Positions 6,178 to 29,770 of a stretch of 29,867 nt of DNA are shown in pieces. The stretch comes from a virus (taxonomy: Duplodnaviria; Caudoviricetes): the IMG/VR virus record IMGVR_UViG_3300025368_000016, positions 1 to 29,867 of that record; one strand, 5' to 3'. Below the pieces are notes generated by a model. It saw only the letters and a list, made by a program, of their open reading frames with translations, was not told where the DNA came from and did not search any database. The position numbers were made by a program, and so were the translations under genes. Every line of letters starts with the position of its first letter. Within the stretch, counting starts at the first letter, position 1.

Positions 6178-6491
6178 CAGCGCCTCACCCAAAGGACGGC
6201 AAGCGCCAGCGCACCATACAGCCCGAGACCCACGAGCTGGTGAGCGGACGGATCGGCGGGGAGCGCGTTGTTGAACAGCCACCACACCGAGAAGAGAGCG
6301 ACGACGCCGGTCAACTGGCCGAGCGCTACAACCGTCCGTTGACTCAGCGCTTTGAGCGCCGTCAGCAACAGAGACAGTGCGGCGTCGTTGACGCGCTGCG
6401 CGGGGGCGGTCGATACGTCGGTGACGGGATCGGGAACCTCGCGGTCAACCCCCACTTGACGAAGACGCGATCCGTTGGCGGAACCTGTCAA
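6177..6491 (-). CDS. Small two-TM membrane protein, holin candidate (start uncertain)
   Basis: Two hydrophobic stretches (VVALGQLTGVVALFSVWWLF; LVGLGLYGALALAVLWV) and a basic C-terminus RR. Confidence 0.55.
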   Translation of the reverse strand: MTGSANGSRLRQVGVDREVPDPVTDVSTAPAQRVNDAALSLLLTALKALSQRTVVALGQLTGVVALFSVWWLFNNALPADPSAHQLVGLGLYGALALAVLWVRR

Positions 6492-6678
6492 AATTCGGTG
6501 CTCCTTCGTCGTCCGAGTCGTCAGGGGCGGCCTTCACTTTCTTCACCCCGACGTAATAGGCCGTGACGGCCTTGAAGGCGTCCAACCGCAGGTCCAACCC
6601 TACATCCTTGCCCTGTGCCTCGTCCAGAATGGATTTCGCCAGCGTGGCCAGGCCTTCTCCGACCGGATCAGCGCTCAT
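6445..6678 (-). CDS. Hypothetical protein, 77 aa
   Basis: ATG at 6678 in an ATGA overlap with the upstream stop (MSADPVGEGLATLAK...). The longer ORF-track version overlaps the upstream gene. Confidence 0.65.
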   Translation of the reverse strand: MSADPVGEGLATLAKSILDEAQGKDVGLDLRLDAFKAVTAYYVGVKKVKAAPDDSDDEGAPNFDRFRQRIASSSSGG

Positions 6679-8879
6679 TTGATGGCTCCGATCTCGCGGC
6701 CGACCTCGTGCAGCCCGCCGAGGCCGGCCGCGGTCATCGCTGCCCGCTTGGTCCATCGTTGGATAGCCAAATACTGCGCGTCCCGGCTTTGCAGCCGGTC
6801 GATCTCGTCCAGTTTTTTCGCCCACGCTTGGACTACGTCGGCCGGAAGCTCCTGACTTTTTTCCAAAATTATGTTGCGAACTGCCGAAGCAAGACGCTGT
6901 TTGGGCAAAGCGCCGTTGGCGATCTGCGCCTCCAGCAGATCAAAAGGCTCCCGCAACTGCTGTTGCGCGCTGGCCACGAGTTTGGCCTCGGACGCAATTC
7001 GGTCCTGAGCCTGCCGCGCCGTTTCCGTGATGGCCTTCCGACGTTCCGCCACGTCTTTCTCACGCAGCCCGCGCTGTTCCGTCACCTGGGAGATGTCAGC
7101 CTCGGCCTTCTCCAGCTGCGCCACCTGGGCCTCGACGCGGCGCTCGGCGTTCGGGAGGGTTTTGAGCCAGTCCGCGTTTTTCGCCGCCCACGCTCGGGCG
7201 GCTGCGGCGTCCTTCGCCTTGGCAAGCTGGCTGAACGCGTAGTTGGCGGCCGTCTGTTCAACTGACGCCACATCGCCGCCATTCAAGGCCACAAGTTGCT
7301 GGACGGTCTTGGGCGTCTTGAAGAAAAGGCCCGGCAACGAGGCCGGATCGGCCGCAGGCGTTTCGACATCGAACTTCTCGCCCTTGAGGGCCTTGGTGCC
7401 GAGCGCCGTTTTGGCTGGCTCCAGCAATTCGGACATCTGCCGGTATTTGGCGTCGGCCTGCGCCAAGGACGGCTCCCATTCCGCGATCGAGGCGGCAAGA
7501 TCGTTCGCCAACTGGCCGGCGCGCTGCTGGCCGATCGCCGCATAGCCTTCCTCCGGGCGGCCGCTCGCGGCGTCGCGGAGCTTCCGCAGCGTCTCGCGGA
7601 GCACGTTCGGCTGCGAATAGGCGATCTCGCCCTCTTGCGCCGGCACAACTTCCGGGCCCTCTTCTGTCGAGCGCAACTGCTCGCCCTGCGCCGGCACGCG
7701 CCGCCCCTCCAAATTCGGCAGCAGCTGTTTGGTCAGCAGAGACCGCTCTTCCTCAGAAACCTTGGTGCCGCCCTCAAGACTCAGCTTGTCGCGCAGCGAC
7801 GAAAGGAACTGTTGGCCGGACGGTGATTGCTGCCACACGTCGCCCGCCGCGTGACGGGCCTGCATGGCATCGGTGGCATCGCCGTAGGCCGCTTCCGCAA
7901 CCGATGCCCGGCTGCCGCGCACGCCGTCATACCAGCGCTTGATGTTGCCGAGCATCTCTGCGCCGATCTCAGGCGTGGACGGCGCGGACTCCAGCGTTTT
8001 GCGCACTTGGCCGGCCGCGTAGGCCGCCGTGTCCGCGACCTGGCGCTCTGCTGCCGCCGCGCCATGAGAACTGGCCGTGAGCTGCTGCACCGCCTGCTCC
8101 GCTTGCGCCTGCGTGATCTCGCCGTGCTGTTGCAGCAGCCGGATGCGCGCCTCAGTGGCCTCCGTCGAAGGCTTCAACAGATCCTCAGAGAACTTGCCGC
8201 TGCGAATGGAGTCCGCCAGTTTGTTCAACGACTCCTTGGCGCTGGTGCCCGAAACCACGCGGAACGGCTGCGCCAGTTTGTTGCCGAGATAGGACGCCCC
8301 TTGCGCGATGGTATCGGCGACGCGCTCGACAGCTGGGATCGCCGCATCGCCCGCCCCTTTCAGGGCGCTGACGACCGATGCGGCCGCGCCAGGCAATGCC
8401 TTGACGCCTTTGATGGCGCCGGCCCCCAGAGCGGCAGCGGCTTCCATCGCGGCGGCATCCGGCGGGAAAGCCTGAGCCGCTTCGAGCGTGCTGCCCGCGA
8501 TTTCTTTCGTGGACGGCAGATACGGCCGCACCGCTGCGCCAAATTGTGCGGCGCCGGGAAACTCGGGGTTGTCATAGGCCGCGGCCTGTTCGACTGGAGC
8601 TTGCTGCTGCGCCCGTTGGCGCTGTTCGGATGCGGCAATCGCCGTGACCGGGTTGAAGCCGGGATCGCCTGGCGCGAGCGCAGCGGTCGGTGCGGCGGGG
8701 ACGGCAGGCGGGGCGGGTGCCGCAGTCAGAGGAGGGGCGCCGCGCGCAATCGCTTTCACGGCGCGGTCGGGAAAGTCCTTTTGCGCGCGAGCGTAGACAT
8801 CGGCCGGCGAAAGCGCGTCTGGAGCGTTCTGGTAGACGTGCTTGGAGCCGTCATCAAAGGAAAGCGTGATGTCCGCCAT
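6675..8879 (-). CDS. Large Ala-rich helical protein, probable internal virion / DNA ejection protein, 734 aa
   Basis: TGATG coupling at 8879. N-terminal MADITLSFDDGSKHVYQNAPD-type module, helical composition, last gene of the ejection-protein block. Confidence 0.7.
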   Translation of the reverse strand: MADITLSFDDGSKHVYQNAPDALSPADVYARAQKDFPDRAVKAIARGAPPLTAAPAPPAVPAAPTAALAPGDPGFNPVTAIAASEQRQRAQQQAPVEQAAAYDNPEFPGAAQFGAAVRPYLPSTKEIAGSTLEAAQAFPPDAAAMEAAAALGAGAIKGVKALPGAAASVVSALKGAGDAAIPAVERVADTIAQGASYLGNKLAQPFRVVSGTSAKESLNKLADSIRSGKFSEDLLKPSTEATEARIRLLQQHGEITQAQAEQAVQQLTASSHGAAAAERQVADTAAYAAGQVRKTLESAPSTPEIGAEMLGNIKRWYDGVRGSRASVAEAAYGDATDAMQARHAAGDVWQQSPSGQQFLSSLRDKLSLEGGTKVSEEERSLLTKQLLPNLEGRRVPAQGEQLRSTEEGPEVVPAQEGEIAYSQPNVLRETLRKLRDAASGRPEEGYAAIGQQRAGQLANDLAASIAEWEPSLAQADAKYRQMSELLEPAKTALGTKALKGEKFDVETPAADPASLPGLFFKTPKTVQQLVALNGGDVASVEQTAANYAFSQLAKAKDAAAARAWAAKNADWLKTLPNAERRVEAQVAQLEKAEADISQVTEQRGLREKDVAERRKAITETARQAQDRIASEAKLVASAQQQLREPFDLLEAQIANGALPKQRLASAVRNIILEKSQELPADVVQAWAKKLDEIDRLQSRDAQYLAIQRWTKRAAMTAAGLGGLHEVGREIGAIK

Positions 8880-14471: not shown

Positions 14472-16565
14472 TCACAACAGCGATTGGTAGTCTTGGACCA
14501 CGGCTGAGACGGAGATCACCGTCATATCCGGCGCCTGCGTCTGCACCGTCATGCCGATCAGCGATCCCGGTTGCGTGGCCGCGTAGCCCGTCACCACGAG
14601 GCCCGCCCGGGCCCAGGCGACGACCGCCGACGACGCGTTGATCCAAGTCACGGTAGCTCCGCTGGCGTTCGTCCAGACCACGACCGGAGAGGCCTGCACG
14701 AACGTGGTTGACGTGCCGGTGACGCCGTTGTCAAGCGCAATGTTGAATGGCTGCGCGGACGGCTGGACGAAATTCAGCAGGGAGAACACCCGATTTGCCA
14801 TCTTGACGAAAAAGTAGGTCGGCTTCTGGTAGAGCTTCGACTGCGCGGTCTTGACCAGAGTCGTGGACGGCGTTTGAAACAGCGGGTAGATCGCCGTGCC
14901 GTCTGTGCCGTACGCGGTCATCTCAGAATTGATCTCTTGCGTCGCGACGTAGGTGAGGTTGACCTCCTGGCTGCTGGTCCACCAGCGCTTGCCGTCCCAC
15001 ATCAGCAGCTTGTTCGCCGGCTGGCCGGTCACTTGGTCAATGATCGGCAACAGCAGCATGTAGACGTGGATGCCGAACACGACCGCCACGGCTGCGCTGG
15101 GCGTGGACAGGCCATTGCCTGAAAAAGAGGCAACTGACCCATAGATGCCGTCAAGCGGCGTCGAGACTTTGGTGACGGCGCCGCCATAGGCCACGTGGAC
15201 GCCGAAAGAATTGGCAAAAATGACGTTCCGAGAGAACACCTGCACGCTTCCTGGCCAGGACGATCCAATCTGCGGATCGACGTTCTGGTTGGCGAAAGTT
15301 GTGGTCGGCGGCGTGCCGCTGGTGTTGACGCCAGAGATGTAGTTCAGCGAGCTGTCGGCCAGCGTGTAGAGGAACCCGTTCGACTGCTTGAGCGACGTGA
15401 AGCCGATCTTGAGAAACGAATTGTAGGACGGGAACGCGCCGCCGCCGTCCGCCGTCGAGAAGTCCGAAGGCGACTCAGGCGCCGTGAACAAGATCCGGTA
15501 GCCGTCGCCGACCCAGACCTGGTTCTGATACGTCTCCACCGTTGTGCCCGCCACGCCAAACGGCATGATAGCCACGGTTGCCCGCGCCACCGTGTTGTTC
15601 GCGTCCGTCACGTAGACGGTGGGCGGCGAGGAATAGGTCTGCCCGCCGTTGGTGATCGTGAACCCCGTGACCTGCCCGCCCGAGATCGTCGGCGTGGCCT
15701 GGGCGCCGTAGCCGCCACCGCCCTCGATCGTCACGGTTGACGTTGAGGTATAGCCGGCGCCGCCGTTGAGCACGTTGATGGCGGTCACGGAGCCAGAAGT
15801 CAGGACGGCCTGGCAGATGGCCGTCGAATAACCGCCGCCGCCCGAAAACGCGAGGTAGAGCACGTCGTAGTAGGAGTAGCCAGACCCGGGGTTCGTGACG
15901 TTGATTGTGGCGATCGCGCCGTCCTGCACCGTCGCCGTGAACGTGGCGCCGCTGCCCGTGCCGCCGACCGCGGTGATCGTTCCCGAAAACCCGCCGCCCG
16001 ACCCGTAGCCGAAACCGCCGCTCTGAATGCTGACGGTGGGGCCGATGCTGCCTGCCCGGTAGAACAGCGTGCCGTCCCACAGATAGTAGCCGTTGCCGAC
16101 CGTCTGGCCGTACGGCGTGCCGCCGGCCGGAGCGTTCGTGATGATGAAATACTGGCTGCCCCATTGCGAGACGCCGATGGACAGCGGGGACACGTACGCC
16201 AGGGTGCCAGCCGAGGCCACCGAGACCGTATCGCGCGTGCTGGTGTTCACGGCCACGATGCTGCCGTCCGACAAGAACACCAGGCAGTAAGGCGTGGAGG
16301 CGATGTTGCCGAACCAGTGCATGATGACCGCAAGGCCGGACGGCGCCGTGTAGAGCGCCCCGCCAATGCCATATAGCGTGCGGAGGTTGTTCTTCCCGAA
16401 CGGCATGAAGCCATCACAGATGTACATCTGGTCGTCTTCGATGGCCGGACGCGAAGGCTTGGTGTTCAACGTCTCGAAACCGTCGAACACCAGGTCCATG
16501 GCGTTTTCGGGCAGACCGATCTGCGATTGAGGCGAGCCGGGCAGGCCTCCGGTTGACTCGCTCAT
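14472..16565 (-). CDS. Tail nozzle / tubular protein B-like (P22 gp10-like position) with inserted Gly-rich repeats, 697 aa
   Basis: Size, beta-rich composition and position after the adaptor genes; internal INVTNPGSGY / NGGAGYT repeats. Confidence 0.7.
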   Translation of the reverse strand: MSESTGGLPGSPQSQIGLPENAMDLVFDGFETLNTKPSRPAIEDDQMYICDGFMPFGKNNLRTLYGIGGALYTAPSGLAVIMHWFGNIASTPYCLVFLSDGSIVAVNTSTRDTVSVASAGTLAYVSPLSIGVSQWGSQYFIITNAPAGGTPYGQTVGNGYYLWDGTLFYRAGSIGPTVSIQSGGFGYGSGGGFSGTITAVGGTGSGATFTATVQDGAIATINVTNPGSGYSYYDVLYLAFSGGGGYSTAICQAVLTSGSVTAINVLNGGAGYTSTSTVTIEGGGGYGAQATPTISGGQVTGFTITNGGQTYSSPPTVYVTDANNTVARATVAIMPFGVAGTTVETYQNQVWVGDGYRILFTAPESPSDFSTADGGGAFPSYNSFLKIGFTSLKQSNGFLYTLADSSLNYISGVNTSGTPPTTTFANQNVDPQIGSSWPGSVQVFSRNVIFANSFGVHVAYGGAVTKVSTPLDGIYGSVASFSGNGLSTPSAAVAVVFGIHVYMLLLPIIDQVTGQPANKLLMWDGKRWWTSSQEVNLTYVATQEINSEMTAYGTDGTAIYPLFQTPSTTLVKTAQSKLYQKPTYFFVKMANRVFSLLNFVQPSAQPFNIALDNGVTGTSTTFVQASPVVVWTNASGATVTWINASSAVVAWARAGLVVTGYAATQPGSLIGMTVQTQAPDMTVISVSAVVQDYQSLL

Positions 16566-21616: not shown

Positions 21617-22192
21617 TTACCGACCGCGCACCTGGCGCAGCGTGGTGTTGATCAGACTGTCCAGCGCCATCGGATCGTCGGGGTTGGCGAAGAGCTTCTG
21701 CATCTCCTCGCCGCCGCGGTTGTCCGGCTCGAACAGATCGAACCGATTGGCGCCCACGCTCTTGACCGGCTCGGCCGGCGGATGGAGACGCTCGAAAGCG
21801 GCGGCCGCGACCTCATGATCCGCGATGCCCTTCTCCTCCATGAACTTCTCGACTTCGGTCAGGCCCTCGTCGGTGTAGCCGTTGGCGCGCAGCCTGTTGC
21901 GGCCACGGTCCCAGGTCTGCTGCAGCTTTTCCATACGCTGCTGCTTCTCGCGCTCGGCCCGCTCGTCGGCGAGCTGCTGCGCCAGCGTGTCAAAGCGCTT
22001 GGTGATCTCGCTGATCTCGGTGCGCAGCGGCTCGTGCGCGTCCAGCTCGGGGATGACCAGATCCGGGTTCAGCGTCTTCTGGGCCTCCAGAACCTTGCGG
22101 CGCGTGGCCGGGTTGTTCAGGAGCTTCTGCATGGTCTCAGTGACCTGGCGGTGCGCCGCCCACTCGCTGGCTTCGACTTCGATCAGGGCCAT
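21617..22192 (-). CDS. Probable scaffolding protein, 191 aa
   Basis: Charged coiled-coil (LAQQLADERAEREKQQRMEKLQQ) directly upstream of the capsid gene. Confidence 0.7.
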   Translation of the reverse strand: MALIEVEASEWAAHRQVTETMQKLLNNPATRRKVLEAQKTLNPDLVIPELDAHEPLRTEISEITKRFDTLAQQLADERAEREKQQRMEKLQQTWDRGRNRLRANGYTDEGLTEVEKFMEEKGIADHEVAAAAFERLHPPAEPVKSVGANRFDLFEPDNRGGEEMQKLFANPDDPMALDSLINTTLRQVRGR

Positions 22193-22197
22193 GGAGA

Positions 22198-22365
22198 TCA
22201 GCCCTTATTCGGGACGTGCGAGATGGACATGTCGCCGGACTTCTGCGAGTTTGGCAGATGGCTCTTGCGACCGCCCACGTCGAGCTGGTCCATCGGGGTG
22301 CGCACGATCTGCGAGTCGGTGCCGCGCGGAATGGACTTCGTGGTGTCCTGGAAAATGTTGACCAT
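22198..22365 (-). CDS. Small hypothetical protein, 55 aa
   Basis: Not in the ORF track. TAAGGA SD, ATG at 22365, MVNIFQDTTKSIPRGTDSQIVRTPMDQLDVGGRKSHLPNSQKSGDMSISHVPNKG, TGA at 22200-22198; fills the gap exactly. Confidence 0.75.
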   Translation of the reverse strand: MVNIFQDTTKSIPRGTDSQIVRTPMDQLDVGGRKSHLPNSQKSGDMSISHVPNKG

Positions 22366-22377
22366 GTGCGTCGTTCC

Positions 22378-22806
22378 TTACTGAGCGGGAGGTGACATTC
22401 CGCCGCCGGCACCGCCGGCACCGCCGCCCGGAGGCTGCATGGCGCGAACAGCCGCGATCTGCGGCGACATCTGCTGGTTGCGCTGCATCAGCGCTTCGAG
22501 CGTGCTTTGCTGCACGCCAGAGGGGACCGACCCCTCGGGAATGTGCTTGAGAAGAGCGTGGACGGCCTTGACGACATCCTTGCCGACCTCGGACGAGATG
22601 CCGAGCGTCTTGACAGCGTCCTCAAGAATGCGGACAGCCACGGCCACGCGGGACAACCCCGCAGCTTCCATTCCCCGGTTGGGGGTGGGCTGCGAAACCG
22701 GGGAGGAGCCAAAAGGCGGCTGACCCGGATTCGACCCGGCACCCGGTGCTGCGGCTGCAGCAGGCGGGGCCGAGGGGGCTGCGGCTTGACCGAGGCTGCC
22801 CGACAT
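22378..22806 (-). CDS. Hypothetical head-region protein, 142 aa
   Basis: Pro/Gly-rich termini around a helical core; located between portal and scaffold. Confidence 0.75.
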   Translation of the reverse strand: MSGSLGQAAAPSAPPAAAAAPGAGSNPGQPPFGSSPVSQPTPNRGMEAAGLSRVAVAVRILEDAVKTLGISSEVGKDVVKAVHALLKHIPEGSVPSGVQQSTLEALMQRNQQMSPQIAAVRAMQPPGGGAGGAGGGMSPPAQ

Positions 22807-22810
22807 GGTC

Positions 22811-22846
22811 TTACTTGCGACCCTTGCGGTGCATCTTGCGAGCCAT
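22811..22846 (-). CDS. 11-aa basic micropeptide MARKMHRKGRK
   Basis: AGGAGG SD 5 nt before the ATG at 22846; TAA at 22813-22811; next gene starts 4 nt later. Confidence 0.6.
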   Translation of the reverse strand: MARKMHRKGRK

Positions 22847-22857
22847 GGTACCCTCCT

Positions 22858-22964
22858 GGCACTCAGTTGATCCGGCCGAACGCGAAAGCGATCGACACCG
22901 AGGGGGCTCCTCTCCCAACAACCGCCGCCCAGGGTCTTGCGACTCGGGAGGACAACTGCCTCGG
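22858..22964 (-). ncRNA. Candidate structured RNA / 5' leader of the head genes
   Basis: Closing helix CAGTTGTCC (22958-50) / GGATCAACTG (22873-64); GTC-GCAA-GAC GNRA hairpin (22943-34); hairpin GTCGATCGC-TTTC-GCGTTCGGC (22896-75). Folded by eye only. Confidence 0.4.
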
Positions 22965-22989
22965 ATGACTATCGGTAAACCCAAAGCCG

Positions 22990-23018
22990 TTGACGGAGAT
23001 ACATCACGGTTGTAGCGT
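22990..23018 (+). promoter_or_regulatory. Sigma70-type promoter for the HTH gene (predicts a leaderless mRNA)
   Basis: TTGACG (22990-95), 17-bp spacer, TAGCGT (23013-18); the ATG A is 7 nt after the -10 element and there is no SD. Confidence 0.6.
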
Positions 23019-23024
23019 GTTGGC

Positions 23025-23222
23025 ATGATTGCTTCGCGCTGGATCACGGTGAAAGAAGTGGCCGCGCTTTGCGGGGTCTCCAGAGCCTATTTGCTGCGCC
23101 ATCGGCAGGACGGCCACGCGCCGCCGCATCACCGCCGCGGGCGAAATATTCTCTACGACCGGGAAGAAGTGGGCGCCTGGATCGAAAGCCAACGCGTCGG
23201 AGGCCAGCAAGCGCGCAGCTAG
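23025..23222 (+). CDS. AlpA/excisionase-type helix-turn-helix DNA-binding protein, 65 aa
   Basis: WITVKEVAALCGVSRAYL...G..PP...RGRNILYDREEVGAWI matches the MerR-like winged HTH pattern of AlpA/Xis proteins. Confidence 0.85.
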   Translation: MIASRWITVKEVAALCGVSRAYLLRHRQDGHAPPHHRRGRNILYDREEVGAWIESQRVGGQQARS

Positions 23223-24871
23223 TGCTTGCCTTTGCCCTTTCCGAGCAGCTCCGGGTGCTCCTGAATCATTTTCGCTTTCTGTTGCTGCATCTCGGCATAG
23301 CGCTGCTTAAGAATGTCCTTCTGCGGGAACGGCAGCATCTCGATCGCGCTCTCGCCGCCGATGAACCCCGACTTGAGGCCGAACGCGATCAGCTGCTGGT
23401 GGTTGTCGGCGAAGATCGGGCTCGACGAATGGCTGTCCACGATCACGCGGCGGTCTTCCGGCAGGTCGTGCAGCAAGAACCCCTTTTTGTCCTCGGTCAT
23501 GTATTCCTGGGCGTCTTTAGCCTGCAAGAGATCCAACGTCTTGTCCGCCATTGCTGCGCACTGGCGCTCAACCAGCAACGACCGGTCCCGCAGCCGCGGT
23601 GAGGCCATCTTGGACAGCGTCTCCGCGTGATTGCCGGATCGCACGCCCATCTCGCCCTGCCCAGACAGGATGTTAGAGAACCCGGACACTTCCTCCATGA
23701 ACTTGTTCAGCGTGTCGATTGCCTGGAACGTCTGCGGCGGCAGCCCGGGCGTGAGATCGTTCACGCTGGCGCCCGCCGGCAGATCGACGTAGCCGGCCGC
23801 GCGGAACTCATCGTATTTTTCGTCGGTGATGCCGTCCGCGCCCACAAAGGCAAGAATCTTATCGAACTGCACGCCCATCAAACGCCGCAGATCGTCCATC
23901 CACGTGGCCAAAAGACCCTGGGGCTCCATAAGGTCTACGATCTCCGACCGGCCCCAGAAATACCCGGCCGTCTGATTCGGCTGCACCAGGCTGAACGGTT
24001 GAGTCTTCGGAGCGAACATATTCTCGCGCTTGAAATACGGGCTGACGAGGATGTCCGGTTCGATCAGCAGAACCGTCGTGTAGTCCTCGCGCTCATCGTC
24101 CTTCACCCACAGCTCGTGGAACGGCACAAGGTCAATGTTGACCTGAGGCCCGACCATGGACCCGCCGCCAGTCCCGGCCAGCTGCACGACGCCGCCCGGC
24201 GTCTGCCGCGCGCTCTCAATGCCGGTCGTGTTGAGGATGCTGGTGGACAGGACGTTGTGGAAGAAATTGCCGTTCAGCGTCTCGGTTGTCTCGCGGCTGG
24301 CGTTCGCCCGGATGCGCGTGAACATGGACTCGGCATCCGGCAGATGACTGATCCGCCGCCACACCTCGGGCAGCGTCATCAGGCCGCTCTCACACAGCGC
24401 TTCCTGCTCCTCGATGCTGTTGATGTCCTCGCGATAGACACCGAACTGCCAGGGCATGACGACGCGGGCTTCCACACCGGAGTGGCCCCACATCTGCTTC
24501 ATGATGGCGCCGCCGTATTGGAGCGCCAGATTGACGGCGTTGCCAAACTGGACATCGATGTCCTTGCGCTCCCACTCGCGCGTCAGCACGCGAGCCGCGA
24601 CCTCTCCCTTGGCCAACACGTCCGCTGCGTAATGCGCCTCGTAGTCCAGCACGAACCGCAACTCGGCCGGGCTGAACAAGTGCGACTGCAGCCGGTCCAC
24701 GTGAGCGAACAGCTTGTTCACGAGGGCGCGTTGCCCCGAGTCCCGCCCGGTTTCGACCCAGAGGTTGTGAACCCGGCACAGCGCCGCCCGCTGGCCGGCC
24801 GATGCGCGGCAGGCCTCCTTGATGTTGAGCACCTGGCGCAGAAGTTCGGTTTTGCTCGACGGCAGAATCAT
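23219..24871 (-). CDS. Portal protein, 550 aa
   Basis: Size and position between terminase and head genes; EEVSGFSNILSGQGEMGVRSG resembles P22-like portal motifs. Confidence 0.85.
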   Translation of the reverse strand: MILPSSKTELLRQVLNIKEACRASAGQRAALCRVHNLWVETGRDSGQRALVNKLFAHVDRLQSHLFSPAELRFVLDYEAHYAADVLAKGEVAARVLTREWERKDIDVQFGNAVNLALQYGGAIMKQMWGHSGVEARVVMPWQFGVYREDINSIEEQEALCESGLMTLPEVWRRISHLPDAESMFTRIRANASRETTETLNGNFFHNVLSTSILNTTGIESARQTPGGVVQLAGTGGGSMVGPQVNIDLVPFHELWVKDDEREDYTTVLLIEPDILVSPYFKRENMFAPKTQPFSLVQPNQTAGYFWGRSEIVDLMEPQGLLATWMDDLRRLMGVQFDKILAFVGADGITDEKYDEFRAAGYVDLPAGASVNDLTPGLPPQTFQAIDTLNKFMEEVSGFSNILSGQGEMGVRSGNHAETLSKMASPRLRDRSLLVERQCAAMADKTLDLLQAKDAQEYMTEDKKGFLLHDLPEDRRVIVDSHSSSPIFADNHQQLIAFGLKSGFIGGESAIEMLPFPQKDILKQRYAEMQQQKAKMIQEHPELLGKGKGKH

Positions 24872-24874
24872 GGT

Positions 24875-24903
24875 TTGCGCTTTGCGAACGGGTGTGGTAG
24901 CCG
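24875..24903 (+). promoter_or_regulatory. Putative promoter of the sRNA
   Basis: TTGCGC (24875-80), 17-bp spacer ending in TGG (extended -10 TGn), TAGCCG (24898-903). Confidence 0.45.
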
Positions 24904-24909
24904 AGAGGT

Positions 24910-24968
24910 GTAGGCGTTATCTTCCTCCCTAAACTTTCCCGGTGGCCTCGGCTGCCGGGTTTTTTTTT
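24910..24968 (+). ncRNA. Small RNA resembling the alpha-r8 / MmgR / GsrN family (Rfam suhB motif)
   Basis: GGCGTTATC-TTCCTCCCT-AAACTT followed directly by a GC hairpin and T9. This matches the family layout of a conserved UUCCUCCCU anti-SD core, an A(A/G)ACUU linker and a terminator. 5' end estimated from the promoter. Confidence 0.75.
24938..24968 (+). terminator. Plus-strand intrinsic terminator (3' end of the sRNA)
   Basis: CCCGGTGGC-CTCG-GCTGCCGGG then nine T. Two G-U pairs form only on the plus strand. Confidence 0.9.
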
Positions 24969-24973
24969 AGACC

Positions 24974-25480
24974 CTAACGCTTCCGCGCGACCTGCTTCCA
25001 ATCTGTCACCAACGTGCCTTCAAGGCCGCAGGTTGACAAAACCTCCGCATTGTAGGCCCCGAATGCGGCCAGGCAGACGGGCGCCCCCGAGTTGGCCGGC
25101 TGCGGCGTGCCGTCTGGTGTGCAGAACGATATCCGCTTCCGCAGAAACAGCACGGCGTTGGCGTCCTTCCAGATCGGCTGAAACCAGTCCGTCTCGACAC
25201 GAGCGTGAATCAGCGCAATGCCGTCTCCGTGCGCGGCCAGCCGACCGATCCACGTGCCGACCACGCGGCGGTCGAACGGCGGGTTCAACCAGACGCGGCC
25301 GTGCCACCGTTTGCTCAGACCGTCGTCCGCAAACGCCAGATTGTGCTTCGCGCAGTCCCACGGCCGAGGATCGGCCGCGCACGGGTCCAAATCAAACACC
25401 CCCAGACGATCCAGCAGACTTCGTGGCGTCAGATGCGTCTGCGACAGGCCAATGGCGCGCTGGTGGCTTCCGAGAGTCAT
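24974..25480 (-). CDS. Phage DNA N6-adenine methyltransferase (phage Dam-like family), 168 aa
   Basis: ATG at 25480; TP...FDLDPCA, DGL...W.GRVWLNPPF catalytic motif, ARVETDWF. Confidence 0.88.
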   Translation of the reverse strand: MTLGSHQRAIGLSQTHLTPRSLLDRLGVFDLDPCAADPRPWDCAKHNLAFADDGLSKRWHGRVWLNPPFDRRVVGTWIGRLAAHGDGIALIHARVETDWFQPIWKDANAVLFLRKRISFCTPDGTPQPANSGAPVCLAAFGAYNAEVLSTCGLEGTLVTDWKQVARKR

Positions 25481-25484
25481 GCGC

Positions 25485-26009
25485 CTAATGCTTCCCCAAA
25501 TTGCCCGCAGCAGCCACGCGGGGCGCCACGGCGGCGTGCTGCTGGACCACGCCCTGCATCGCCGACACGCCGGCCCCGGCATAGGGTCCGACCCGCGTGG
25601 ACCTAGCGTACTCGGCTGCGGTCGACTGATCCATGTGCCCGCCCGCGCCCGTCTGCGCCATGAACGTGGACACGGGGTTGCTGACCGCGGCGACCGATGT
25701 CTCGCCCTCGCGGGCGTTGTCACGCATGTTGGTGATGCGCATCGCGCCCATGTCGGCGGCACTCTCGCCCAGGGCCTCGGCCGCCAACTCGGCACGGTGC
25801 GCGGAACTGTCCTCCATCGCCCGATAGACGTTGTCGGCCACCTTGCCGATCGACTTGGCCACGTGTGGGGCGGACAGCTCGGGCGCGGTGCCTGTCATGT
25901 CAGCGCCGCAGAGGACGCACCGGTTCGGCGGCTCCTCCGTCGAGCGCATGTGGAGATGGTCGAAATAGCCCTCGCAGTCCGGGCATTGGTAAGTGCGGAT
26001 CACGGGCAT
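25485..26009 (-). CDS. FmdB-like zinc-ribbon protein, 174 aa
   Basis: ATG at 26009; MPVIRTYQCPDCEGYFD...RCVLCG. Confidence 0.8.
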   Translation of the reverse strand: MPVIRTYQCPDCEGYFDHLHMRSTEEPPNRCVLCGADMTGTAPELSAPHVAKSIGKVADNVYRAMEDSSAHRAELAAEALGESAADMGAMRITNMRDNAREGETSVAAVSNPVSTFMAQTGAGGHMDQSTAAEYARSTRVGPYAGAGVSAMQGVVQQHAAVAPRVAAAGNLGKH

Positions 26010-26011
26010 GG

Positions 26012-26173
26012 TTAGCGGGCCTTCTTCTTCGCCGCGCGCATGTTGTCCACGAGGTTCGGATACGGTCGGCCCGCGGCGGCAGCGGCTTTTTTGGCCGCCG
26101 TCTTCTGCGCTGGCGTCAGCGCGGTGGATGTCTTCTTGGGGCTTTTCGTGCCCCACACCGGCTTCCTGCTCAT
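26012..26173 (-). CDS. Small basic protein, 53 aa (GRPYPNLVDNM motif)
   Basis: Not in the ORF track. ATGA overlap with the terminase stop, GGAGGGG SD; MSRKPVWGTKSPKKTSTALTPAQKTAAKKAAAAAGRPYPNLVDNMRAAKKKAR. Confidence 0.8.
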   Translation of the reverse strand: MSRKPVWGTKSPKKTSTALTPAQKTAAKKAAAAAGRPYPNLVDNMRAAKKKAR

Positions 26174-28134
26174 CTGCCCCTCCAGGCCATGCGAGCCGCG
26201 AGCGCCGCGGCGGCGCGTCGGTCAGCCTGCTTCCCCTTGAAATACTGGTTCAGGCTGTGCGTGGCCAGCAAAGAAAACTGGTCCTGCATGGACAGCCTGG
26301 TGCGCGCGATCTCCGACTCCCGCGTTCGGTTCGACGCGATCAGCGGCCGGCGCTCGTATTGCTCCCAGCACAGCACCGCCATCGCCAAGGCCAGCACGCG
26401 GTCGTCGTGGTCGTCGCCCTCGGCCTTGATGCTGTCGCCGTCCCGCGTGACCACGCGGAGTTCGTCGATTGCGTCGCGCGACCGCAGGATGATGCCGCCG
26501 TTGGTAACAAAGTCGCGCAGGCGCTCCATCATGGCGACCTTGTTGACGCCGGTCGTTTTCCAGTGAACCGAGCCTTGCCCTGGCACGACCGCGTCCGGCC
26601 GCGTGTAGAGGTAGTTCTTGCAGTTGACGAAAAAATTCTTGAGGCCTTGCTCGTCCGCCTCTTTTTTGAGGTAGCCGCTGCTGACGATGCGCTTGAGGCT
26701 CTGGTATTCCTGCCACACCGCGACGCCGGGCCCGTTGATCTCCAGCATGAGGCGCGTGTTCTTGTACCAGCCCATCAGCGACGCCAGCACCCAGGCAAAC
26801 TGGTGTGGTTGCACGTTGGTGGACGCGAACTCGCCGACCTGTTCGATCTTGTCGGCATAGCAGCGCATGATCTGCGCGGCGCTGCGGTCGTTGTGCTCGT
26901 TGGCGCCGTAGGCCGGGTCGGCGGCCACGATGTAGACGCCCTCGGGCTTTGGCTCTTCCCAGATCTTTAACTGGATCTGACGCCGATGCCGCGCCGGCTC
27001 AATCGACATGCTAATAAAATCGGCGCCCGTGTAGAACATCCACGATTTGAAGTCGTCGCTCGCGGTGGTCTTGCTGATCTCCGTCAGCTTGTCCGACGAG
27101 AAGAAATTGCTCCCGTCGGTGGTAAACATCTCTTCCTCGACCCACGGGTGCTCGCGGCCCTGGTACTCGTCGTAGGCGATGCTGTCGTCCGAATCGCCTT
27201 CGTCGTCCTCGCCGTAGCCGAGCGGATTGGTTTCCTTGCGATACCACGCCAGCTGCTCGCGCGTGACCTTCCAGCCGTAGCGCTCCTCGACCTCGGCAAT
27301 GCGCTTCGCCTCTTCCTTCGTCACGGGTGGCGAGCCGAACTTCTCGAACTGCGCCGTGTGCGCCCGGATGCGGTGCGTCGGGACTAGATACCAGCCGGTG
27401 AAGATCGTGGCCTCTTCCAGATCGTTCGCCTTGGCCTTCTGCCAGAGCTTGTACCAATCCGAGCCCACGTTGCGGCCGGTGGACTCCCACAGGAACAGCC
27501 GGTTGGGGTTCTCGACCGCTAGCGACTTGCGAAACGACGACAGGCCCTCCGGGTTGTTGTAGGTGCCGACCTCGGACGCATGGACCATCGTGATGCCCTG
27601 GCCGCGGCCCAGCGCCCCGCCGCCCGCCGTCTGCTTCACGCCGGCCGACAGGAAAGTCACGGTGCTGCCGTTGCTGAACCTGCCGCCGTATCGGTTGGAC
27701 TTGAAGCTCGGAAACCGCAGCTTCGCCGGCAGGCTCGCCAAGGTGTACTCGACCTCGGTGCGCGCTTCGCTCATGTGCTGCGCCGTGTCCAGCAGGAACG
27801 CGCCGCGGGAGCCGGGGTGCAGCGCGATCCACATGGAGCTGAACGGACGGCAGATTGTCGAGATGCCCTGCTGACGACCCTTGCCCCATTTGAAATCATG
27901 GATCCCGCGTTGCAGACCGGAGAATACCTCGTCCAGGCCCCGCTCCTGCGCCGGGTAAAGTTGCCCACCCAGGACGATCTCGCCCTTCTCCTTCGACGGG
28001 ATCACGCAGTAGTTGAGGAACTCTAAAAACACTTCTTTGTAGGCTTTGGCTTTGTCGGCGGACCAGACTTCCCCCGTGTCCTCCAGGTGGTAGTCGCGAG
28101 TGTGGACTGCCGGAGCCTCAATCTCCTCACTCAT
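26170..28134 (-). CDS. terL: Terminase large subunit, 654 aa
   Basis: Walker A-like KGRQQGIST, Walker B-like MVHASE, coupling motif EST, RNase H-like nuclease residues ADPAYG / DRSA / HDDRVLA; ATG at 28134 in an ATGA overlap. Confidence 0.92.
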   Translation of the reverse strand: MSEEIEAPAVHTRDYHLEDTGEVWSADKAKAYKEVFLEFLNYCVIPSKEKGEIVLGGQLYPAQERGLDEVFSGLQRGIHDFKWGKGRQQGISTICRPFSSMWIALHPGSRGAFLLDTAQHMSEARTEVEYTLASLPAKLRFPSFKSNRYGGRFSNGSTVTFLSAGVKQTAGGGALGRGQGITMVHASEVGTYNNPEGLSSFRKSLAVENPNRLFLWESTGRNVGSDWYKLWQKAKANDLEEATIFTGWYLVPTHRIRAHTAQFEKFGSPPVTKEEAKRIAEVEERYGWKVTREQLAWYRKETNPLGYGEDDEGDSDDSIAYDEYQGREHPWVEEEMFTTDGSNFFSSDKLTEISKTTASDDFKSWMFYTGADFISMSIEPARHRRQIQLKIWEEPKPEGVYIVAADPAYGANEHNDRSAAQIMRCYADKIEQVGEFASTNVQPHQFAWVLASLMGWYKNTRLMLEINGPGVAVWQEYQSLKRIVSSGYLKKEADEQGLKNFFVNCKNYLYTRPDAVVPGQGSVHWKTTGVNKVAMMERLRDFVTNGGIILRSRDAIDELRVVTRDGDSIKAEGDDHDDRVLALAMAVLCWEQYERRPLIASNRTRESEIARTRLSMQDQFSLLATHSLNQYFKGKQADRRAAAALAARMAWRGR

Positions 28135-28808: not shown

Positions 28809-28888
28809 TCCTCTCGTGAAGCTCAATGCTGGCCATCAGACGGTCCTCTCGTGAAGCTCAATGCTGGCCATCAGACGGTCCTCTCGTG
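28809..28888. repeat. 35-bp exact tandem repeat, 2.3 copies
   Basis: TCCTCTCGTGAAGCTCAATGCTGGCCATCAGACGG at 28809 and 28844, plus TCCTCTCGTG at 28879. Confidence 0.97.
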
Positions 28889-29596
28889 GCGTTGCGGTTT
28901 CTGGTCGGCATGAGCGGCCTTCAACATCCTCTCCACCTGGGTTGGCGCGAACGGACGGCCGGTGCGGCCGACATATCCCAGATCCTCCAGCCGGTAGGAG
29001 ATGCGCCTGAACGAGAGGCCAGTCTTGCGCAAGCTGACGGCCTCGTCAAGTATCCGGCGTTCGGCCGGGTTGGCCACAAGCCTCGCGTCACGGCCCGCCC
29101 CCTCGACCTGATAGCCGAACGGCGCCTCGCCGCCGGCAAACCCGCCCGACCGCTGCTTGGCCCGCTTGCCGTCCATCACGCGCTCCGCGATACGGGTGCG
29201 CTCGAACTCGGCGAACGCCGCCAGCATCGTGAAAAACAGCTTTGCCACGCCGTTCTCCGTCACCGGATCGGGCCCCATGTCGGCAATCACGAGTTTGACG
29301 CTCATCTCCTGGAGCCGGCCCGCGGTGGCGAGGGCGTCCTGCGCGCTGCGGAAGATGCGGTCCATCTTGGCCGCGATCACGGTGTCGCCGGGCTTCAACG
29401 CCGCCAACATCTCGGCCCCGCCCGGGCGCTGGCTGATCGGAGTGCCGCCGCTGACGCCCGGGTCGGAAAACACACGGGTGATCTCCTCGCCGCGCATCAG
29501 GGCGGCCCCGGTGATGCGGCGGACCTGGTCGTCAAGAGAACTGCGGTCGGTGGCCTGCTCGGTCGTTGAGACGCGAACGTAGGCATAGATGCTCAT
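28871..29596 (-). CDS. Serine recombinase (resolvase/invertase catalytic domain plus short recombinase-type DNA-binding domain), 241 aa
   Basis: YVRVST (catalytic Ser), DPGVSG, RPG, KMDRIFRS, FAEFERTRIAER, GGEAPFGY; GGAG SD. Confidence 0.93.
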   Translation of the reverse strand: MSIYAYVRVSTTEQATDRSSLDDQVRRITGAALMRGEEITRVFSDPGVSGGTPISQRPGGAEMLAALKPGDTVIAAKMDRIFRSAQDALATAGRLQEMSVKLVIADMGPDPVTENGVAKLFFTMLAAFAEFERTRIAERVMDGKRAKQRSGGFAGGEAPFGYQVEGAGRDARLVANPAERRILDEAVSLRKTGLSFRRISYRLEDLGYVGRTGRPFAPTQVERMLKAAHADQKPQRHERTV

Positions 29597-29770
29597 CAAA
29601 ATCTCCGTCGTCTAGGGGGGTAAGGGGTGGAAATTACTGATCGTTGGCGGAGGATTACTGGTCGCTACCCGCCGTTAGCGGGCGTTACGGCGGAAAACGG
29701 AAAAATTTATGGGGGGCGTAGGGTTGGGTGTCCCCGAATCCTCCAACTTTGCGTCCCGGCGCCAAGCGGG

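Follow-up and report, generated by a model that had tools for sequence, protein, structure and literature searches.

The 102-bp gap between the portal protein and Dam methyltransferase genes of a tailed phage (Caudoviricetes; IMG/VR record IMGVR_UViG_3300025368_000016) holds a predicted small RNA gene that, judging from its sequence, very likely descends from the alpha-r8 RNAs of alphaproteobacteria. What is new is a stand-alone antisense alpha-r8 unit located in an accessory slot that is shared with counter-defence genes and carrying lineage-specific seeds.

The window analysed here is the whole 29.9-kb (29,867-nucleotide) linear virus record, with an estimated completeness of 47% (CheckV), in which the minus strand holds nearly all the genes. 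Complete distant relatives have genomes of 64-66 kb. No tyrosine integrase turned up in a search of 5 relatives, which included two complete but distant ones, so that the clade is probably non-integrating. The key features of the window are as follows.

24875..24880, plus strand: predicted -35 hexamer TTGCGC, starting 4 bp upstream of the portal start codon and pointing away from the portal gene
24898..24903, plus strand: predicted -10 hexamer TAGCCG, after a 17-nt spacer, without the -7T
24910..24968, plus strand: predicted small RNA of ~59 nt, with the 5' end inferred from the promoter (+/-2 nt)
24913-24936, plus strand: GGCGTTATCTTCCTCCCTAAACTT
24921..24930, plus strand: anti-Shine-Dalgarno decamer CUUCCUCCCU, identical at 9 of 10 positions to the family decamer UUUCCUCCCU
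24922-24935, plus strand: 14-nt core
24938..24968, plus strand: intrinsic terminator, with a 9-bp stem and CUCG loop (24938-24959) followed by T9 (24960-24968)
23219..24871, minus strand: portal protein gene (550 aa; label from relatives), without a Shine-Dalgarno-like motif before its start codon
24974..25480, minus strand: Dam-type adenine methyltransferase gene (start uncertain, frame open to 25795), with the stop codon at 24974-24976
ending at 26170, minus strand: terminase large subunit gene
28871-29599, minus strand: serine recombinase gene
elsewhere in the window, minus strand: genes for a zinc-ribbon protein, the major capsid protein and tail proteins

The gap spans 24872-24973 because the portal ORF starts at 24871 and the methyltransferase ends with the stop codon at 24974-24976. 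The portal label comes from GenBank entries named 'portal protein' at about 30% identity and from a match of the homolog P0023 to SU10_portal (29.6 bits against a cut-off of 30); the window's own portal-like protein has no Pfam or PHROG family match. The only short ORF that reaches the gap, at 24819-24932 and 37 aa long, is antisense to the portal start and overlaps it. An HTH_17 gene of the excisionase/AlpA-like type (65 aa, 47 bits; 23025-23222, plus strand) lies antisense just behind the portal gene, as it does in L237 and L235, so that the portal is bracketed by antisense units, with this gene behind it and the RNA before it. Genes for tRNA-Met(CAT) and/or tRNA-Lys directly follow the portal gene in some relatives (L237 7456-7532, L235 8906-9066 and L241 18574-18648), unlike in the window, where this position holds no tRNA.

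The initial annotation had read the gap as a complete plus-strand unit, and every element that it named is in place: the promoter-like TTGCGC-17-TAGCCG, then TTCCTCCCTAAACT, a 9-bp hairpin and T9, all antisense to both neighbours. Because both neighbouring genes are on the opposite strand, the hairpin cannot terminate them, and on the minus strand no U-run follows it. This is the sole terminator-like site within 22000-27000; given that shuffled sequences average 4.0 such sites, the count of one is by itself no evidence. The fold of 24910-24969 has a z-score of -2.9, and the pattern of the 14-nt core is found in none of 300 Markov copies of the window. The first six bases of the decamer are predicted to be open and the last four to be partly held in a weak hairpin (unpaired probability 0.12-0.46); in the consensus fold of four sequences, the decamer is unpaired. 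The motifs GAAC and CGTT are spaced 25 nt apart in the unit, and EcfG promoters have a narrower spacing of 16-17 nt. A strict scan for E. coli-type promoters returned 0 sites; the predicted promoter fits those used by alphaproteobacterial sigma70, most of which are without the -7T (PMC8407463).

Among all Rfam families, suhB (RF00519, alpha-r8/MmgR) is the best match, covering 24893-24974 with 31.7 bits (E 4.9e-5 for 251 nt searched against all families and E 1.4e-6 on the whole contig), and all other families score at or below 20.8 bits, the value of the next best. This result bears out the assignment to an alpha-r8/suhB-type RNA made in the initial annotation. The covariance model that it had proposed as a check agrees on the family and falls short on the score: the gathering cut-off of RF00519 is 41 bits, and no Rfam match in the window reaches the gathering level. 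In the alignment to suhB, the core and the terminator are matched and the canonical 5' hairpin is missing. The low score together with the lost hairpin leads us to class the RNA as a shortened alpha-r8 variant rather than a plain member of the family.

In common with MmgR of Sinorhizobium meliloti, SuhB of Sphingopyxis granuli and SisA-D of Caulobacter crescentus, the phage RNA has a C/U-rich anti-Shine-Dalgarno core followed by CUAAACUU and an intrinsic terminator; the 9-bp stem with T9 directly abuts the core, as the definition of alpha-r8 demands. The stand-alone layout from a (here predicted) promoter to a terminator, with no fixed neighbour genes, is shared as well (PMC1273637). Unlike the cellular members, this RNA is encoded by a phage, has no counterpart to the GCCC-loop-GGGC 5' hairpin in the Rfam consensus, deviates from the family decamer at one of 10 positions, scores 31.7 rather than 41 bits, and has relatives with altered seeds at the same site. 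Nor does it belong with the subgroup of alpha-r8 RNAs linked to the N-formylglutamate amidohydrolase (FGase) gene, which is not adjacent here, the neighbours being the portal and Dam methyltransferase genes. Burkholderia anti-hemB (RF02837) and the Betaproteobacteria toxic sRNA (RF02278) share a CUCCUCCCU-like motif with a terminator but score only 15 and 11.9 bits, respectively. A further kinship suggested at the outset, with GsrN of C. crescentus, is not supported. Compared by description, GsrN likewise has a C-rich pairing loop and associates with Hfq, but it is sigmaT-controlled and is not described as alpha-r8/suhB: the available text of the GsrN paper refers to neither MmgR, RF00519 nor Rfam and reports BLAST homologs only in Caulobacteraceae (PMC5869019), and the available text of a study naming SisA-D as the Caulobacter alpha-r8 RNAs has no mention of GsrN (PMC12559287).

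The unit is conserved beside the portal gene in related phages, where the initial annotation had proposed to look for it. Among portal relatives drawn from IMG/VR and metagenomes, it is present in antisense in all 4 records with 84-99.6% portal identity (L001-L004), which together with the window form three lineages, the window being grouped with L001. The core is located 47-52 bp upstream of the portal start in these records, with suhB scores of 32-37.8 bits; the 14 nt are identical across the window, L001, L003 and L004, and TTCCTCCCTAAACT and TTGCGCTTTGCGA are invariant among the close relatives. The window and L001 share the 9/10 decamer, and the exact family decamer is present in L002/L003 and in L004; the near-canonical seed is limited to these 3 independent lineages. 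Four-fold-degenerate portal sites are 47-49% identical between the three lineages, compared with 36-47% for more distant pairs, and synonymous sites between the core-bearing lineages are near-saturated. The promoter geometry is similarly persistent: all 8 carrier sequences tested have a TTG at a distance of 4-6 bp from the portal start and, behind a spacer of exactly 17 nt, a TA, even as the sequence of this spacer diverges, whereas a single one of 25 non-carriers has TTG-N20-TA. The translation start of the portal on the other strand could account for some of the -35 conservation. The terminator sequences differ between relatives, yet each folds, with a hairpin and a T-run in all carriers; a U-G pair is replaced by C-G in L001, and an automatic four-sequence alignment that is poorly suited for counting covariation yields 1 two-sided change among 9 pairs, with several pairs broken. 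The constancy of the core and of the promoter spacing demonstrates purifying selection on the seed and the promoter geometry.

Beyond the close relatives, the unit persists with different bodies. At 63-66% portal identity, 12 of 15 loci have it at the same place, with the promoter and terminator kept and the seed altered; the portals of these altered-seed carriers are 64-66% identical. In type B (nine near-identical loci, L175-L183), GGGCGTTTCCTC is followed by a 9-nt insert, CCCT and the terminator; Rfam does not detect this version, the homology of which is argued from its position, its promoter, those 12 letters and its terminator. The type B unit of L175 contains TAATACCCT twice, in the seed region and in the terminator loop. 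In type C (L169-L171), CCCTAGACTT and the terminator remain, the UUUCCU half is gone and the 5' end is CU-rich, with suhB scores of 26-31.1 bits (E 1.2e-5 and 3.4e-6); the RNA bodies of L169 and L170 are identical over 47 of 47 nt at 58% four-fold-site identity. The remaining three lineages of this range (L172, L173 and L174) have no unit. The altered seeds and the unit-less lineages imply that the unit is dispensable and that not every member of the clade needs the canonical seed. No core was found near the portal start in loci below 56% portal identity among those with a portal start. On the portal tree, the presence of the unit needs three changes, which fit one gain followed by losses or several gains.

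The other side of the slot is variable. In L001, the portal of which is 99.6% identical to that of the window, an Acb2/Tad1 anti-defence gene (80-325) takes the methyltransferase's place beside the RNA terminator; Acb2/Tad1 is also found in the same terminase-portal interval of G107 and in L233 (15195-15443). The swap in L001 indicates that the RNA stays linked to the portal side of a slot in which counter-defence genes are exchanged. One might go further and picture the alpha-r8 scaffold of the host as an RNA-only cargo gene that alphaproteobacterial phages can re-programme. This integrase-less clade would then keep one antisense promoter-terminator cassette in the slot of Dam methyltransferase and Acb2/Tad1 in at least 4 seed versions, and every version would have acquired other host mRNAs as targets or escaped a host sponge, in a small-RNA seed arms race; we regard this scenario as speculative and rather unlikely.

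Copies of alpha-r8 are widespread among phages. A pattern search of IMG/VR for the core followed by T5, with no hairpin required, matched at least 119 loci (about 130 estimated), against 14 for a scrambled control pattern. Among the matches listed, a terminator-like hairpin accompanies 105 of 110 distinct sequences, compared with none of 9 distinct scrambled controls, and the exact decamer is present in 106 of the 110, most of it being fixed by the pattern itself. For 100 of the at least 119 loci, whole records were scored (the 19 others are close relatives, duplicates and leftovers): among the matches listed, suhB exceeds 41 bits in 79 of these 100, including 9 of the 12 scored records with direct terminal repeats. 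Contamination with host flanks was considered as the source of the viral matches and rejected, because FGase, the neighbour of the main host copy, is found in 0 of 100 viral records among the matches listed, a result that excludes this main copy only. Open reading frames of at least 60 aa, identified by a simple caller, were scanned at 76 loci among the matches listed; the nearest is a head, packaging, tail, connector or endolysin gene in 13 and an integrase in 7. At the 68 listed loci with both neighbours called, a co-directional gene precedes 54 copies, and 12 others form antisense islands as in the window.

In GenBank, 3 of 5 phage regions tested are above the cut-off: that of Bradyrhizobium phage ppBeUSDA76-1 (62.8 bits, at about 16066-16146 of its record, where it is unannotated) and those of two phages labelled Microcystis (L165 and L166; 62.8 and 47 bits), which suggests that the true host of the latter two is an alphaproteobacterium in the culture. 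The ppBdUSDA122-1 and BDU-MI-1 regions are below the cut-off, and the window's own RNA has no real match among GenBank phages. Several copies adjoin a tyrosine integrase gene, often convergently (L033, L048, L052, L054, L069, L076, L091 and L166); such an RNA gene may serve as the attachment site and thus provide a capture route. Many copies have in common an upstream CATAGG-TGTGCGG leader behind another hairpin (L030, L047, L061, L077, L087, L112, L127, L136, L146 and L163), and their neighbours, where scanned, include packaging, minor tail and HNH genes. Some records carry two or three suhB copies (G043 8231-8622, G007 6416-6630, G057 47902-48214 and G029 348-1505), in tandem in three of them. 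The literature searched, which excluded most subscription papers including the family-defining 2016 study, contained no report of alpha-r8 RNAs in phages; the text or supplements of the 2016 study may list prophage copies, and according to PMC12559287 that study invokes lateral transfer.

An alphaproteobacterial host, which the initial annotation had deduced from the RNA, is indicated independently by GapR in one of 5 relatives (G107, portal 66% identical), with 12 GenBank phage matches that all infect alphaproteobacteria, and by GcrA in another (G111, 56%). Among plasmids, the window's recombinase best matches sequences from Methylobacterium and Gluconobacter (40-47%, weak). Portal relatives were found neither in GTDB genomes with a single query nor among cultured phages in GenBank, where only two uncultured phages, at 30-36%, are related. 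A profile search also recovered 11 metagenome-bin contigs (27-54% identity), the mixed taxa of which were taken to reflect mis-binned phage DNA and were not used for host assignment.

The alpha-r8 family is defined by the terminator and a single-stranded decamer (PMC12559287). In SisA, the decamer pairs with the 5' UTR at the start region of mRNAs for TonB-dependent receptors and represses them in an Hfq-requiring manner, and the sponge CrfA removes SisA in carbon starvation (PMC12559287). SuhB, with Hfq, represses thnR, phbB and a TonB-dependent receptor (bioRxiv 10.64898/2025.12.09.693200), and MmgR limits PHB (PMC7143759). Because the phage unit has the parts needed for action of the SisA/SuhB type and cannot terminate its neighbours, we favor, on balance and by analogy, a trans-acting repressor of host translation that would pair through a UUCCUCCCU seed at host Shine-Dalgarno regions with the assistance of Hfq. 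Under this model, the host sigma70 polymerase would make the ~59-nt RNA, the U-tail would load it onto Hfq, and seed pairing would lessen the translation of host mRNAs during infection. By analogy with SisA and SuhB, the targets would be TonB-dependent receptors and carbon-scavenging or storage genes; the extra phage-made dose would keep the host in a 'feast' setting and outrun a CrfA-type sponge, possibly with a reduction of the receptors available to competing phages. Because the unit faces backwards, it could be housed within the late operon while late transcription would pass its terminator unhindered.

Several observations count against trans-repression: the sub-threshold suhB score, the 9/10 decamer with its last four bases predicted to be mostly paired, the empty strict promoter scan, the altered seeds and missing units at 63-66% portal identity, and the restriction of the near-canonical seed to 3 independent lineages. 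The possibility raised earlier that the RNA silences late genes of the phage itself is not borne out: judged by contiguous seed matches in the window, from which about half of the genome is missing, an AGGGAGG-type site is found at 0 of 35 gene starts and coding-strand AGGGAGG only opposite the RNA, and the seeds of three relatives match gene starts over at most 8 nt, the chance level.

Trans-repression has to be weighed against local roles. The head-on promoter and the fully complementary antisense RNA could form a gate in cis that dampens read-through into, or translation of, the portal and downstream genes until late in infection, with the seed being secondary. In favour of such a gate, no more than 4-6 bp separate the portal start from the promoter in any carrier, the promoter and terminator outlast changes of the seed, and an exchange of the neighbouring gene leaves the unit beside the portal. 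An 8-nt stretch of the L169/L170-type RNA also matches the portal start region (at chance level overall), and in the unrelated provirus L106 a copy lies between terminase and portal, again in antisense. However, antisense action in cis needs no particular sequence, whereas the host-type core of 14 nt has stayed invariant despite near-saturated divergence and the L169/L170 body is unchanged over its 47 nt; moreover, three close lineages do without the unit, and among the matches listed only 12 of 68 phage copies are antisense islands, 54 lying behind a co-directional gene. We therefore hold the gate to be unlikely, if a serious contender. That the opposite strand matters, with an SD-like AGGGAGGAA acting as a standby or stabilising site ~55 nt upstream of the portal start, would fit with that start lacking an SD-like motif and with the sole coding-strand AGGGAGG of the window lying at the RNA gene; but no start codon is at SD distance, the promoter geometry and U-tail belong to the plus strand, both altered-seed types and the non-carriers manage without the motif, and most phage copies among the matches listed are in sense orientation, all of which makes this role highly improbable.

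The other two readings concern the RNA itself. It might mainly soak up a CrfA-type host sponge or Hfq, freeing or disturbing host sRNAs rather than pairing with mRNAs. CrfA binds the alpha-r8 core (SisA G33-C45), each of the two RNAs lowers the level of the other (PMC12559287), and the phage RNA consists of little beyond the core and the U-tail. Against such a decoy, the same seed directly represses mRNAs in SisA (PMC12559287) and SuhB (bioRxiv 10.64898/2025.12.09.693200), the altered seeds would presumably pair poorly with such a sponge, and no CrfA-type sponge is known for the host; we consider this role quite improbable. Finally, the sub-threshold score, the lost 5' hairpin, the altered seeds and the patchy presence could point to a decaying relic of a captured host gene that has no present function, but the core, promoter spacing and terminator structure are kept despite near-saturated synonymous sites, and even the altered L169/L170 body is conserved over 47 nt, so that a relic appears very unlikely.

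Most of the host-acting phage small RNAs described in the available literature come from prophages of E. coli and Vibrio. The svsR RNA of the E. coli prophage NC-SV lowers a host outer-membrane uptake protein and limits other phages (PMC12803456), offering a model for the benefit that a trans-acting repressor might bring to the phage studied here; compared by description, it differs in being a lambdoid prophage RNA of Enterobacteriaceae, as opposed to a clade without a tyrosine integrase. The prophage sponge RNAs AsxR and AgvB (PMC12559287; PMC4104026) are also phage-encoded and plug into the host Hfq network but antagonise host sRNAs, whereas the present RNA copies one. The sequence establishes the anatomy of the unit, its family resemblance and its stand-alone antisense position. 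Copies of this alphaproteobacterial RNA, well studied as a regulator of carbon status and of TonB-dependent receptors, turn up in about a hundred viral records as well as in cultured phages. Phage alpha-r8 would thus be an RNA counterpart of an auxiliary metabolic gene, missed by protein-centred annotation, and a host marker for uncultured phages, and its altered-seed versions would provide a natural series for how a small RNA changes its targets.
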